Source: Candidatus Multivoradales bacterium
GTDB lineage: Bacteria; Acidobacteriota; Thermoanaerobaculia; Multivoradales; J023
Assembly (NCBI GenBank): GCA_965248925.1
Contig: CBDFLE010000005.1
Coordinates: 1,728,001-1,792,000, forward strand
DNA length: 64,000 nucleotides
Direction of reading: 5' to 3'
Position numbers and translations under genes: made by a program. Below the pieces are notes generated by a model that was not told the DNA's origin, ran no database searches, and saw only the letters and a list, made by a program, of their open reading frames with translations. Shown here one piece after another: positions 36,955 through 40,342 of this stretch (positions are counted from its first letter, which is position 1; the number at the start of each line of letters is the position of its first letter).

Positions 36955-37341
36955 TCAGAACATCCGCGAAGCCATCTCCACCAAGGCAACGCCCGCCGGC
37001 ACCAGAGCGCTGCCAGTTTCGGCGGCGTTCTTCAACACCTCGCTGGCGGTCTTCAGCTTACCCAGCACGGCGGCGCCGTTGGGCCGCGACTTCTCCAGCT
37101 GCTGCCGGGCCCCCGCTAGCTCAGCGTCCACCACTTCAGTGATTTCGGCGTCCAGACCACCGCGATCGAGCTCACCCCGCAGCTGGTCCAGCGCCGCCAA
37201 CAGCTCGCCGAGCGAAGACCCACCAGCCTGCTGAACCCGAGCTTTTCCAGCCGCCAGAGTGGAGCCGACCACGCTGCCGCCCACCGCAATTCCGCCGTTC
37301 GACGCGCTGACTGATTGGGGATCGTGCTTATCTTCCGGCAT
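36955..37341 (-). CDS. Small protein: N-terminal amyloid-like motif + helical bundle (putative NLR partner)
   Basis: VSASNGGIAVGGSVVGSTL followed by amphipathic helices; RBS GGAAGGTG. Confidence 0.75.
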   Translation of the reverse strand: MPEDKHDPQSVSASNGGIAVGGSVVGSTLAAGKARVQQAGGSSLGELLAALDQLRGELDRGGLDAEITEVVDAELAGARQQLEKSRPNGAAVLGKLKTASEVLKNAAETGSALVPAGVALVEMASRMF

Positions 37342-37378
37342 CGCTTCACCTTCCTAATTTGGATTATTGTCGAAGCAA

Positions 37379-37404
37379 CAGAAGTCAGAAATCAGGAATC
37401 AGAA
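37379..37404 (-). repeat. Four tandem 7-nt repeats T(T/C)CTGA(T/C) at the NACHT-FGE 3' end
   Basis: Minus strand TTCTGAT TCCTGAT TTCTGAC TTCTG. Confidence 0.7.
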
Positions 37405-40342
37405 TTCGCCAGGGAGAGAACCACTCGAAAACCGATGTCGCCGAGGAAGTTCCCAGGATCGAACCCGAGCGAGAAGCGCAGCGAGCGAAGTCTCCGGAAT
37501 TCCAGTAAGACCCTCCCCTGAGGATCCTGAAGCCTCTTCTTTCAACTTCTTCCCTCTCGTCTGGCTGCCAGCGATAGCCGTACTGCTCCGACCGTGCATC
37601 TTCGCCCCATAGGGTCGAAGTCCACTCCCAGACATTGCCAATGGCGTCTTGTAAACCGAACCCGCCCTGCCCCTCTGGGAACATTCCCACGGACGAGGTT
37701 TGGCTGAGGCCGGTCTCGCGTACATTGGCTTTCTCGGGATCATACTGCGTCTTCCAGGGCCAAATGGTCTGGGCTCCGCCTCGGCTAGCCCGCTCCCATT
37801 CAGCTTCGTTGGGCAAATGTACCCCGAAAGGTTGGCGGCCAACGCCTCGCGGCAGGGGCGCTCTGCGGGTAGTTCTTAGACGCCGACCTAGCCAGCGGCT
37901 GAACGCCAGCGCCTCGAACCAAGAAATGCCCACCACCGGCCGGCTGGGCGAGGCCCAACGCGGATGCCCCCACCAAAAAGGCAGCTGGCGCTTCTCCGGC
38001 GGGCGCCGAGCGAGCCAATCGAGCCAGTTCTTGCGCTCTTCTTCACTCAACCCTTCGATTTCAGGCTCCAACTCACCGCGCAGCCAGGCTAGGCCGCGCT
38101 GGCCCCAGAGATCTGGGTCGTCGTAGTCGACTTCTCGTAGGAAAACCGCGTATTGGGTGTTGGTGATCGGATAGCGACTGATCCAGAAACGGCGCAGCTT
38201 GACCGGGTGAGCGGGCTTTTCCCAGTCCTTGGCCTCGGGGTCGTCGTCGGGGCTGCCAAGGATGAAGCTACCGCGAGGGATGGTCAGCCAATCGATGTCG
38301 GGCCAGACAGTTTCGCCCACGGTGGTGGTGGCGACGCCGGGCCGCGAATCGCCCAAACGGCCGAGGGCATCGCCGGCTTCGAGGCGTTCTTTGGCCGGTA
38401 GATGGCCGCCTGCCACCAGGCGGCTCAGCCATTGGCGAATACGCTCCAGCTGCATGGCGAGGGTGGGCTCGTCCGGCGACAGAAAAGGTGGCTGGAAGTT
38501 GTTGGCCGTTCCTTGCTCTGCCGCGGCCTGGCCCAAGCGTAGCTCGATCGCCAGCAGCCCGGACACCAGGGCACGCCGCCACTGAATATCCTTAACCTGA
38601 TCGACCTCATCTGGAGGATCGCTGGGGAGCAGCAAGAGCAGGGATTCGAGCAGCGACCCGGTGCCACCGCGAGCGATCTTGCCGTAGCCCAATAGGACGA
38701 CTTCCCGCCACCACAGAGGGTCGACTTCGAGTTGCCGGATCAAGGCTCTGGAACCGCCACGATCGGCAAGATAGTGCGCCGCCAGGTATTCCTGAATACA
38801 ACGGTGCGGGAACATGTACACCCCGTCGCGGGGACTGATCAGAAGGCCGGCACGGTCGCGCAAGTAGGCGGTGAGTTGGCGGGTGGTGAGGTCGCCTTGT
38901 AGATCCTCGAAGGCCTCTAGCAACTCATGATGACTGATGTCGGCCGGCCGGTCGACGGTCTGGCCGCTCTCCAGGGTCTCAGACTCAGCCTCGCGCTGGC
39001 GCTGATGAACCGCGAAGGCCAGGGCCGCCAGGGCGTTGAGCAAGCGGGACTCGGGAACTTTGAGCACTCTGAGGATGCTGGGTTCGGTGATCTCCTTTTG
39101 GCTCTCGTCGTCCCAGACCCGGCGCTTGTCTTGCCATCTGTAGAGCAGCAGGTCAGTGCTGGTGGCGTAGAGATCAGCGCGGTCTTCAGGCAACTTGCCG
39201 CTGGCGTGCAAGGTCGCCATCAAGGTAAGCAGTAAAGGCTGCGAGGCCAGGTCTGCGAGGTAGCTCTGATCAGCGATGGCATCGCGCAGCTCCTTGGCTT
39301 TGGCCGCAACATTGAGCGCATCGGTATCTAGCGAGGAACGCACCACCTGGTACCAACGCTCGATGAAGGTCTCGACCTGCGGCTGGCGAAATGGCGCCAC
39401 ACCCAGCGTCTCGAAACCGGACAGCGGCCGGCTTTCTGCGCTGTAAGCGTAAGGACGGGCGGTGACCAGCAGCCGCGATGGCTGCTCGCCGAAGGAGGCC
39501 GCCAGGTCTTCCACCGCCTGCAGCAAGCGCTCGCGGCGGTCGGCGGTGGTCGGCACTTCGTCGAGGCCGTCGAGAATCCACAGACCTCCATCGGTCAGCA
39601 GGCGGCCGCGTAGCAAGTCCATCAGCCGGCGGGCACCGGCCGGATCGATTGCCTCGTCCAGGCTGGCTTGCAATGCGGTCCACAGCAGGCTGGCTTGACC
39701 TTGGCCCAGCCGCGGCACACTGCCCGCCAGTTGACGCAGGGTGAGCCGCACCGGTACCAGCCCCACCAGGCTTTCGGGTAGGCGCCGGTCGCCGGTGGCT
39801 AGCAGGAAGCAGAGGTGCTGAGCGAAAGTGGTCTTGCCGGAGCCCGGATCACCGAGCAGGATGTGATGCCGGGCCTGGCCAGAGACCGCTTCGAGCAAGT
39901 CGCGGTGCTCTCCGTCAGCACCGCGCGCTAGCCGCCAGGACCAATCCCGGCAATCTTCGTCCTCTTTCGGGACGGGCGGCGTCGAGACTTCCAGCTCGAC
40001 GTAGACCTGCGACAGGCGAAGGTCGCTGTTGGCGGTGACGAAACGTGGCTGCACCTTGCCCAGCGGTAGTCGCTCGGCGCGGCCAGCTAGCCACTGCAGG
40101 TAGCTGGCGTAGAGATCATCGTCCGAGAGCGCATTCGCATCACCGACAACAATCTGGGCGTTAATGACGCTGCCGCCAATGGCTAGAGCACCCGCGCTGG
40201 CACTGACCGGCCTTGGCGCCTCTGCGGCCTGCTGACCTAGCTCTTGCTCTATGCGTTGCTTGCGCTCTTCGAGTGCGCGCATCTGCTGCTCGATGTCTTC
40301 GAGCACTGCGGCGCTGCCATCCTGTTTCAATCGATCGGACAT
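37385..40342 (-). CDS. NLR-like STAND protein: coiled coil + amyloid-like motif + NACHT + FGE-sulfatase/C-type lectin domain; frameshift in the last ~25 codons
   Basis: GDPGSGKTT, ILDGLDE, VTAR, PLLL, FPHRCIQEYLAA; YPITNTQY, PVVGISW, LPNEAEWE, GNVWEW, RGGSY; RBS GGGGAG before ATG 40342. Confidence 0.9.
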   Translation of the reverse strand: MSDRLKQDGSAAVLEDIEQQMRALEERKQRIEQELGQQAAEAPRPVSASAGALAIGGSVINAQIVVGDANALSDDDLYASYLQWLAGRAERLPLGKVQPRFVTANSDLRLSQVYVELEVSTPPVPKEDEDCRDWSWRLARGADGEHRDLLEAVSGQARHHILLGDPGSGKTTFAQHLCFLLATGDRRLPESLVGLVPVRLTLRQLAGSVPRLGQGQASLLWTALQASLDEAIDPAGARRLMDLLRGRLLTDGGLWILDGLDEVPTTADRRERLLQAVEDLAASFGEQPSRLLVTARPYAYSAESRPLSGFETLGVAPFRQPQVETFIERWYQVVRSSLDTDALNVAAKAKELRDAIADQSYLADLASQPLLLTLMATLHASGKLPEDRADLYATSTDLLLYRWQDKRRVWDDESQKEITEPSILRVLKVPESRLLNALAALAFAVHQRQREAESETLESGQTVDRPADISHHELLEAFEDLQGDLTTRQLTAYLRDRAGLLISPRDGVYMFPHRCIQEYLAAHYLADRGGSRALIRQLEVDPLWWREVVLLGYGKIARGGTGSLLESLLLLLPSDPPDEVDQVKDIQWRRALVSGLLAIELRLGQAAAEQGTANNFQPPFLSPDEPTLAMQLERIRQWLSRLVAGGHLPAKERLEAGDALGRLGDSRPGVATTTVGETVWPDIDWLTIPRGSFILGSPDDDPEAKDWEKPAHPVKLRRFWISRYPITNTQYAVFLREVDYDDPDLWGQRGLAWLRGELEPEIEGLSEEERKNWLDWLARRPPEKRQLPFWWGHPRWASPSRPVVGISWFEALAFSRWLGRRLRTTRRAPLPRGVGRQPFGVHLPNEAEWERASRGGAQTIWPWKTQYDPEKANVRETGLSQTSSVGMFPEGQGGFGLQDAIGNVWEWTSTLWGEDARSEQYGYRWQPDEREEVERRGFRILRGGSYWNSGDFARCASRSGSILGTSSATSVFEWFSPWRILIPDF

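Follow-up and report, generated by a model that had tools for sequence, protein, structure and literature searches.

The window, a stretch of 64,000 nucleotides (nt) of contig CBDFLE010000005.1 from a Candidatus Multivoradales bacterium, carries on its minus strand two adjacent genes whose products have a short motif in common. The upstream gene encodes a protein resembling a NOD-like receptor (NLR), with a NACHT domain and a domain of the C-type-lectin fold, and the downstream gene encodes a small protein of 128 residues, referred to here as the partner. Both genes lie on the same strand, and each is preceded by a Shine-Dalgarno-like sequence. The features of the pair are the following:

37385-40342 (-): NLR-like gene, 985 residues from the ATG at 40342, domains by Pfam
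40217-40309 (-): charged, heptad-like helical stretch before the motif, AVLEDIEQQMRALEERKQRIEQELGQQAAEA, read by eye from the sequence alone
40139-40207 (-): NLR-side motif, VSASAGALAIGGSVINAQIVVGD, residues 46-68 counted from the ATG
39350-39865 (-): NACHT NTPase with Walker A GDPGSGKTTF, Pfam, residues 187-358 in the 1012-residue numbering
37466-38293 (-): FGE-sulfatase domain (C-type-lectin fold), the putative sensor; the Pfam match ends at profile position 237 of 255
37342-37384 (-): spacer of 43 nt between the NLR stop and the partner ATG, containing AGGAAGGTGAAG
36955-37341 (-): partner gene, 128 residues, with an N-terminal motif and then a C-terminal four-helix domain
37243-37311 (-): partner-side motif, VSASNGGIAVGGSVVGSTLAAGK, residues 11-33 of 128
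36961-37212 (-): helical domain of the partner, residues 44-127, with helices at 44-60, 65-83, 89-105, 107-110 and 114-127

From its N-terminus, the NLR is thus composed of a charged helical stretch, the shared motif, the NACHT domain, a linker and the FGE-sulfatase/C-lectin-fold domain. Pfam detects NACHT at 2.8e-12 and FGE-sulfatase at 7e-45, while NCBIfam returns sub-threshold FGE-family and NACHT matches only and PADLOC weak P-loop matches only. A mechanical call extends the open reading frame (ORF) to a TTG at 40423 (37385-40423, minus strand, 1012 residues). The start is most likely the ATG at 40342 rather than this TTG; a Shine-Dalgarno-like GGGGAG lies 8 nt 5′ of the ATG. Charged stretches comparable to the one before the motif can be seen by eye in the NLRs of loci L062, L071 and L029 and in the second NLR of L014. 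A Pfam scan of the NLR found neither an enzymatic effector domain nor an effector-associated domain (EAD), and the element common to the two genes is the short motif. A weak consensus scan of the spacer on the gene strand found no terminator-like or promoter-like site.

The first-pass annotation of this DNA had quoted a matching amyloid-like peptide from each protein, and both lie where it placed them. Aligned without gaps, VSASAGALAIGGSVINAQIVVGD and VSASNGGIAVGGSVVGSTLAAGK are identical at 11 of 23 residues, and BLASTP of the NLR against the partner lengthens the match to 13 of 27 (E 2e-5, for a single comparison). The likeness had also been said to be held at the level of the protein, and the codons agree with this, since they have diverged: 35 of 69 nt are identical, third positions agree in 6 of 23 codons, and only 4 of the 11 identical residues are encoded by the same codon. 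We built a hidden Markov model (HMM) of the motif from 40 instances in other organisms, leaving out the two of the window, and ran it without filters against the 92,947 six-frame ORFs of at least 50 residues in the 7.98-Mb genome. The partner headed the list (E 7.3e-4), followed by the NLR (E 0.027), and the third match was at E 0.91. A tight regular expression for the motif matches these two ORFs alone in the genome, and HMM searches found in it no second carrier of the motif, of the partner's helical domain or of TCAD2, a Pfam domain to which we return below. Because the genome holds no other carrier of the motif or the domain, the small protein is the only candidate output for the window NLR, and it is favoured as the output since, in addition, the NLR has no enzymatic effector domain.

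Over 42 instances, which were selected by regular expression, the motif is made up of 20% G, 14% V, 11.5% I, 11% S and 8% N, with K at 1.3%, L at 1.7% and P at 0.1%. A prediction of the complex between the NLR N-terminus and the partner returned no answer (score 0.01), which counts neither way on binding.

Conservation of the pair and of its motif

A single-sequence homologue search with the small protein returned the protein itself alone. An exhaustive HMMER search of 1.84 billion representatives, in turn, gave 45 partner-family clusters at E ≤ 1e-3, mostly of 120-165 residues, and a profile search gave 121 partner-family proteins at E ≤ 1e-5. The distribution of the family is sparse. At E < 1e-5 the partner is found in only two other same-family genomes (G008 and G012) among 61 relatives; it is present in 4 of 401 sampled genomes of the window's phylum and in 25 of 401 genomes of the phylum of L001. 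This last locus, from a metagenome-assembled genome (MAG) of Anaerolineae, was the one true relative returned when genome contigs were scanned with the NLR, together with one FGE-only fragment (L002).

Gene order was judged in 16 loci that have a solo small protein and enough 5′ flank. The loci left out of this count were L011 and L012, in which the small gene stands at the contig start; L013, in which a NACHT-FGE gene precedes a small gene that the contig end cuts off after ~33 codons; the fused forms L064, L068, L072, L074, L075 and L078; and the ~220-residue forms with an extra N-terminal domain, L028, L070, L076 and L079. In 13 of the 16, the small gene is immediately preceded by a NACHT-FGE gene of the same orientation (the window, L001, L014, L060-63, L065-67, L069, L071 and L077), in L029 such a gene immediately follows it, and two loci, L027 and L073, have other neighbours; the upstream neighbour in L073 is an ORF of 1754 residues with a Walker A. 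The NACHT and FGE domains were confirmed by Pfam in the window, L067, L071 and the second NLR of L014. Each of the 12 foreign NLRs can be aligned with that of the window (E 4e-69 to 2e-51), 11 of them with 27-28% identity over most of its length and that of L001 in two segments of 42-43%. The gap between the genes is -4 to 52 nt in 11 of the 13 pairs, 43 nt in the window; in the other two pairs its length depends on the start codon chosen or on a frameshifted MAG gene. The two genes form a module that is conserved in two phyla.

The motif is kept and matched in homologous pairs: it stands near the N-terminus of the NLR and at the N-terminus of the partner in 13 of 13. Its form varies from lineage to lineage, and the variants are found on both sides. 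In L001 the variant FVGRDK is common to both partners. In L029 a shortened motif, GDV..S.V.V.GDGN, is common to the small protein and two tandem NLR-like genes, and in L027 the pattern G[DN]V.GTN.Q.GD.N is common to the small protein and the C-terminus of a protein of 246 residues. The Chloroflexota loci have signatures specific to each side, IQAGDQSIAVGGSVTDSAIIHGQT in the NLR and LSAGDHSIVIGGSVQGSNIVVGNN in the partner. When motifs were compared among six lineage representatives of our own choice, of which one (L067) was from Chloroflexota and one (L027) had a partner that is not an NLR, the scores of the cognate pairs summed to 340 against a permutation mean of 220.8. Only 1 of the 720 permutations, the true pairing itself, reaches the cognate sum; the cognate motif is row-best in 4 of 6 cases and column-best in 5 of 6.

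These data bear on the simplest alternative, namely that, in a genome rich in GC, two Gly/Ala/Val-rich stretches resemble each other by chance or through their composition, and that the small ORF is not a real gene. It is true that the motif is short and of low complexity, and that a genome of 62% GC holds many spurious ORFs. Nevertheless, an HMM built on foreign sequences picks exactly these two among all the ORFs, the partner belongs to a family of many clusters and profile matches, and the pair recurs in 13 loci of two phyla with motifs that co-vary across lineages. We regard the chance explanation, now extremely improbable, as effectively refuted.

The partner's helical domain and the reach of the motif

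The partner protein has no Pfam, NCBIfam or PADLOC family match. AlphaFold2 (AF2), given the family alignment A1, models it with a predicted local distance difference test score (pLDDT) of 78.8 overall; the helical domain is mostly above 90 and residues 10-37, the motif region, are below 50. The model agrees with the earlier description of an N-terminal motif placed before a helical bundle. Compared with the Protein Data Bank (PDB) by Foldseek, it gave 0 matches at E ≤ 1e-3, generic helix bundles only, and sequence profile searches of the PDB gave nothing below E 0.1. By hydropathy, the C-terminal half of the helical domain is low in charge.

In alignment A1 the C-terminal domain, of ~90 residues, is conserved, and the N-terminus is variable, with Gly-rich motifs of two kinds: type A resembles that of the window (..SVAIGGNVSGSTIVTGDGN) and type B is GGGDFVGRDK. 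With HMMs built here, the helical domain is detected in 159 of 160 collected family proteins. Motif A and/or B is present in 140 of these 159 and is N-terminal to the domain in 140 of 140, and the domain closes the protein, with a median of 1 residue after it. The solo form is by far the commonest architecture of the family.

Many of the family profile matches carry Pfam PF19971, TCAD2 ("Ternary complex associated domain 2"). TCAD2 is likewise a C-terminal helical domain of ~90 residues that follows the same Gly-rich motifs, solo or behind TIR, and the partners of NACHT-FGE proteins in Chloroflexota are of TCAD2 type, as judged from proteins P0131 and P0120 and from locus similarity. The difference is that the Pfam model does not match the window protein at E ≤ 0.1, and it gives 0 matches at E ≤ 1 genome-wide. 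Comparison by hhalign of the helical domain only with 31 TCAD2 C-termini gave a probability of 75.5% and E 2.4e-5 over 54 columns, and the helical-domain HMM matches TCAD2-type partners at 5e-7 to 7e-4. The helical domain of the partner is therefore a probable remote relative of TCAD2. We found no description of TCAD2 in searchable text, and it is absent from the main text of Kaur 2020, the part covered, and from the other relevant papers searched. DUF5955 and DUF4404 (Atlas feature scores 0.91-0.93) are no more than leads: 3 of 36 family members match DUF5955, the best at 8e-4, a search of the genome with the DUF5955 model misses the window protein, and the literature searched does not mention it.

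The motif is also used in another arrangement. In Chloroflexota loci, the motif HMM finds it at the C-terminus of small helical proteins that resemble Bell proteins (L046, L047 and L057) and start MD....L..FL.PFLPYLLK.GEKAAEEAG. Their genes lie directly upstream of those for NB-ARC, nSTAND5 or NACHT-like proteins with the motif near the N-terminus, that is, in the canonical layout:

L046, 1-2046 (-): canonical-layout pair
L047, 1112-2872 (+): canonical-layout pair
L057, 3-2229 (-): canonical-layout pair

For this family (alignment A4, five sequences) AF2 predicts six helices and a motif-bearing C-terminus of pLDDT below 50, and Foldseek of the model against the PDB gave 0 matches at E ≤ 1e-3, generic helix bundles only. 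Because no PDB fold matches, "Bell-like" is a descriptive label, given because these proteins are small, have an acidic second residue and a first helix that is hydrophobic, bear the motif C-terminally and are encoded upstream of a gene of the STAND (signal transduction ATPases with numerous domains) class. One Bell-like protein has an EAD10 match below the cut-off (20.2 vs 24.1 bits). Another, at L059 1507-2034 (-), has ~7 tandem copies of the heptad VGEGNAI between its helical domain and its C-terminal motif.

When the profiles of the two partner families are compared, the motif alone aligns (29 columns, probability 97.2%, E 3.7e-11). From this, and from the occurrence of the motif in the canonical layout, it follows that a single motif family works with two different partner domains, in opposite polarity. 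The canonical Bell-like/STAND layout also ties the motif to the type of the bacterial amyloid signalling sequences (BASS). The Gly/Val/Ile/Ser/Asn-rich motif that would couple the window proteins is of the same family as the one that links Bell-like and STAND proteins.

A proposed two-gene relay and its alternatives

We propose that the pair is a two-gene STAND module of the conflict or immunity type, in which a NACHT-FGE sensor is coupled to the downstream small protein through the shared β-motif of ~24 residues; on balance we hold this to be the case, with confidence somewhat above even. There is good support for homotypic coupling through the motif. Amyloid templating, the presumed means of coupling, is supported by analogy and by the ancestry that the motif shares with the canonical layout. 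In the proposed sequence of events, the lectin domain would bind a ligand, and oligomerisation of the NACHT domain would cluster the N-terminal motifs, possibly aided by the helical stretch that precedes them. The clustered motifs would form a cross-β (amyloid-like) nucleus, which would template the N-terminal motif of the partner, and the ensuing polymerisation would switch on or concentrate the TCAD2-like four-helix domain, the putative output. We infer the contact between the motifs, its amyloid-like nature, the direction of signalling and a toxic or defensive output; an output by cell death is unsupported. The first-pass annotation had envisaged a prion-like relay of this kind, for cell death or defence, and its mechanism is partly supported and is the best available reading.

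Several findings weigh against the proposed relay. Within the Chloroflexota pairs, cognate motifs are no more alike than non-cognate ones; this within-clade test covered 10 loci, 7 of them close Chloroflexota relatives. Co-variation of the motifs in homologous pairs, which had been named as a test of the idea, holds across the six lineages (1 in 720) and is not seen within Chloroflexota. Gene order is not universal either: the partner is downstream of the NLR, as had been reported for the window, in 13 of 14 adjacent pairs, and in L029 the order is reversed. At that locus (G081:C136, 2875-8000, plus strand) a small gene is followed by a NACHT-FGE-like gene and then by a second NLR-like ORF. 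The window copy of the NLR may also be impaired or defective through a frameshift, which is described below.

Further points against it concern the identity of the output. Identity of the partner with HeLo/HET-s/MLKL executioners was rejected, there being no Pfam match and no Foldseek match at E ≤ 1e-3, and identity with Bell was rejected as well, since hhalign against the Bell-like family aligns the motif alone. The helical domain has no segment like a transmembrane (TM) helix, the maximal mean Kyte-Doolittle value being 0.83 over 17 columns, and membrane attack by the partner is unsupported because no TM-like hydrophobic window exists in it. In addition, the unit of motif and helical domain occurs fused behind TIR (P0064 and P0067; TIR_2 with TCAD2 in P0120), caspase (P0024 and P0090) and CHAT (P0030) domains, and it ends leucine-rich-repeat- or kinase-Roc-COR (Roco) proteins, confirmed by Pfam in L064 (8587-10941, minus strand) and L068 (6283-9102, plus strand). 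Four more loci, L072, L074, L075 and L078, appear by sequence to be of Roco type and have a helical-domain HMM match; that of L078 is a fragment of 212 residues at a contig end. Among 17 longer profile matches, 7 have a caspase, 6 have TIR_2 with TCAD2, 2 have PF13271 and 2 are without a Pfam domain. Given the fusions with TIR, caspase, CHAT and Roco proteins, executioner and adaptor or regulator roles both fit. From the architectures, the spread would fit an output module that always needs an adjacent motif, or an adaptor or regulator comparable to EADs.

It is thus necessary to consider that the motif is a homotypic adaptor rather than a self-templating amyloid, and that the role of the small protein is not execution but that of an adaptor or regulator. 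The protein might then cap or buffer the NLR motif, or bridge to other proteins via its TCAD2-like domain, as CARD-only and PYD-only proteins do. That the unit stands at the C-terminus of TIR, caspase, CHAT and Roco proteins is what one would expect if it were an adaptor, the related Pfam domain is named for association with a ternary complex, and the helical domain has neither a TM-like segment nor an executioner-like fold match. In the same direction, Kaur 2021 (PMC8195603) describes N-terminal adaptors of NTPase-FGS proteins that are common to neighbouring effector genes. On the other hand, the genome offers no evident protein for it to bridge to, since it has no further one with the helical domain, TCAD2 or the motif; the NLR itself lacks an enzymatic effector domain, and the solo form prevails in the family. 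The motif in Bell-like/STAND pairs also points to the BASS type, and templating has been shown for other motif families of that type (Dyrka 2020; Ibarlosa 2024). We therefore consider the adaptor explanation doubtful.

The frameshift lies at the 3′ end of the NLR gene and was recognised by comparison with the C-termini of homologues:

37392-37463 (-): conserved end of the FGE domain, out of frame, FDPGNFLGDIGFRVVLSLANSDS followed by a stop

The reading frame of the NLR switches near 37463, so that the last ~25 codons of the sensor domain are affected and the annotated ORF ends in unrelated residues, SILGTSSATSVFEWFSPWRILIPDF and a stop. The truncation of the FGE Pfam match (237 of 255) is due to this frameshift; the L067 homologue covers profile positions 3-254 of 255. 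The DNA at the frame switch is identical (0 differences) in contigs of three sequencing runs, all of one sample. These runs may be the source of the assembly itself, and because they come from one sample and possibly from the assembly's own data, they are not independent confirmation of the frameshift. The affected region corresponds to the end of the lectin fold that, in homologues, is varied by a diversity-generating retroelement (DGR).

Accordingly, it has to be asked whether the module here is a decaying remnant, in which the motif likeness goes back to the common ancestry of a pair that used to function and the NLR has ceased to act as a sensor. The frameshift in the DGR-variable lectin-fold end, with the conserved GFRVVLSLANSDS and its stop out of frame, would be expected of a remnant, as would its recurrence in the contigs of the three runs, the truncated FGE match and the failure of blastn to find a template repeat. 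However, only the last ~25 residues are hit, both ORFs being otherwise uninterrupted (985 and 128 codons), the small protein keeps the conserved helical domain of its family, and the runs lack independence for the reason given. Moreover, decay would bear on the current activity of this copy only and not on the identity of the module. A remnant seems quite unlikely to us.

With regard to diversification, no template-like blastn match (word size 7) to the last ~120 nt of the NLR was found in the genome. No reverse transcriptase (RT) lies within the window, the 12 RT matches of the genome being all elsewhere, and the combination of variable repeat, template repeat and RT by which a DGR target is recognised was not found for the window NLR. 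Elsewhere in the same genome, FGE-like and NLR-like paralogues surround two short RT matches (C5:146763-147335 and C6:4816364-4816957) in the segments C5:142337-148388 and C6:4813693-4817996, and a third short RT, at C6:1661203-1661748, has weak blastn matches to the window NLR in its vicinity. They probably represent DGR loci, and none bears the motif.

In a same-family relative, L014 (G008:C225), copies of an 82-nt repeat are found at 6199-6280, 9358-9439 and 10984-11065. A template-like copy adjoins an RVT_1 gene (RT at 9856-10974, minus strand), and each of the two NACHT-FGE genes, of which one is paired with a small motif gene, has a variable-like copy at its 3′ end. The copies differ at coding-strand adenines, the signature of a DGR.

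It is tempting to go further and to see the two-gene relay as the mirror image of a HET-s system: a prion-like N-terminal motif would control a C-terminal TCAD2-like output and would be nucleated by a NACHT receptor whose lectin sensor is hypermutated by DGRs in relatives. We put this forward tentatively, as possible though not probable. If true, an antigen receptor that can be diversified in an adaptive-like way would feed directly into amyloid signal amplification, and one amyloid motif family would be a common currency between sensors (NACHT-FGE, NB-ARC, nSTAND5 and Roco) and outputs (Bell-like, TCAD2-like, TIR, caspase and CHAT).

As for its surroundings, the module stands beside a pair of the MNT/HepT type and a helix-turn-helix (HTH) gene, with a carboxypeptidase gene on one side and, on the other, a long ORF at 40553-43474 (+) of 973 residues, which resembles glycine dehydrogenase (gcvP) in sequence. 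At 33385-34273 (+) a nucleotidyltransferase gene (Polbeta/NTP_transf_2, 2.9e-18) overlaps the next ORF, a HepT-like RNase (1.1e-30). This MNT/HepT toxin-antitoxin-type pair is ~3 kb from the module, and its nucleotidyltransferase also matches the PADLOC candidate family PDC-S09. Between it and the module, at 34372-35796 (-), is an ORF of 474 residues with a weak N-terminal HTH_3 match (2.9e-4, below the cut-off) and a long helical remainder. At L067, 11560-16752 (-), a FIST-domain gene and a GAF histidine kinase gene of ~1340 residues precede the NACHT-FGE/partner pair (Pfam, L067 only), and in L060, L061, L063 and L066 genes at the same positions precede it.

Relation to known systems

The closest parallel is with the pairs of Bell/BASS proteins and NLRs known from filamentous bacteria. 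According to Dyrka 2020 (10.1101/2020.01.06.895854), such a pair consists of a helical protein of ~120-140 residues, whose first helix is hydrophobic, which is acidic at position 2-3 and which has the motif C-terminally, and a collinear NLR that bears the motif N-terminally. Amyloid templating has been demonstrated experimentally for other BASS motif families (10.1101/2020.01.06.895854; 10.1101/2024.11.07.622273). The module described here resembles these pairs and the BASS11 system Bab/Agp of E. coli (Ibarlosa 2024) in that a small helical protein and the N-terminal region of an adjacent, collinear STAND/NLR protein have a motif of ~20-25 residues in common. The gaps between the genes are short in both, and the motifs are rich in G/V/I/N and poor in K/P/L. 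In addition, loci of Chloroflexota (L046, L047 and L057) have this same motif in the canonical layout.

In contrast to the Bell/BASS pairs, the motif of the partner is here N-terminal rather than C-terminal, its gene is downstream rather than upstream, and its helical domain is not Bell-like. The NLR, for its part, combines NACHT with FGE/C-lectin instead of NB-ARC or NACHT with TPR/WD repeats. The genome screen of Dyrka 2020 looked at the C-termini of Bell proteins. Our motif strings have 0 matches in the text of that preprint, which does not include the BASS1-11 logos and Table S2.

A second group to be compared are the STAND NTPases with sensors of the lectin fold. The first-pass annotation had called the FGE/C-lectin sensor atypical, and in this it was mistaken, for STAND/NACHT proteins with FGS/FGE sensors have been described repeatedly (Kaur 2020; Kaur 2021, PMC8195603; Kibby 2022; Dore 2024, PMC10907252; Nature 2026, PMC13581612). 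These STAND-FGS systems are often diversified by DGRs and have an N-terminal adaptor in common with neighbouring effector genes (the "EAD principle"), and Dore 2024 (PMC10907252) noted uncharacterised N-terminal extensions on NACHT-CLec targets of DGRs. The present pair agrees with them in its NACHT domain and FGS sensor, in the N-terminal element common to a neighbouring gene and, in the relative L014, in a DGR template/variable repeat next to an RT. It differs in that the shared element is a short β-motif as opposed to a globular EAD, and in that the window copy has neither an RT in the window nor a template repeat. The literature searched, supplements excluded, gives no description of a TCAD2-like partner with an N-terminal motif or of a β-motif shared by NACHT-FGS proteins.

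Should templating between the motifs prove real, bacterial amyloid signalling would extend beyond the layout of published screens, with its Bell domain and C-terminal motif. Such templating would also provide a function for TCAD2-like small proteins, explain the N-terminal extensions of NACHT-lectin DGR targets noted by Dore 2024 and link hypermutating lectin sensors to a prion-like relay. The system is compact, with two genes and two peptides of ~24 residues.

Finally, the fungal pairs HET-s/NWD2 and HELLP/PNT1 offer an analogy, in which an N-terminal NLR motif templates the matching motif on a helical partner, much as we envisage for the window pair. The difference is that no relation in sequence or fold connects them with the proteins described here, and that the polarity of the partner is mirrored. 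Taken together, these comparisons indicate that a lectin sensor on a STAND NTPase is not new and that the pair, with its TCAD2-like partner and N-terminal partner motif, is a new form of a known type of gene pair.

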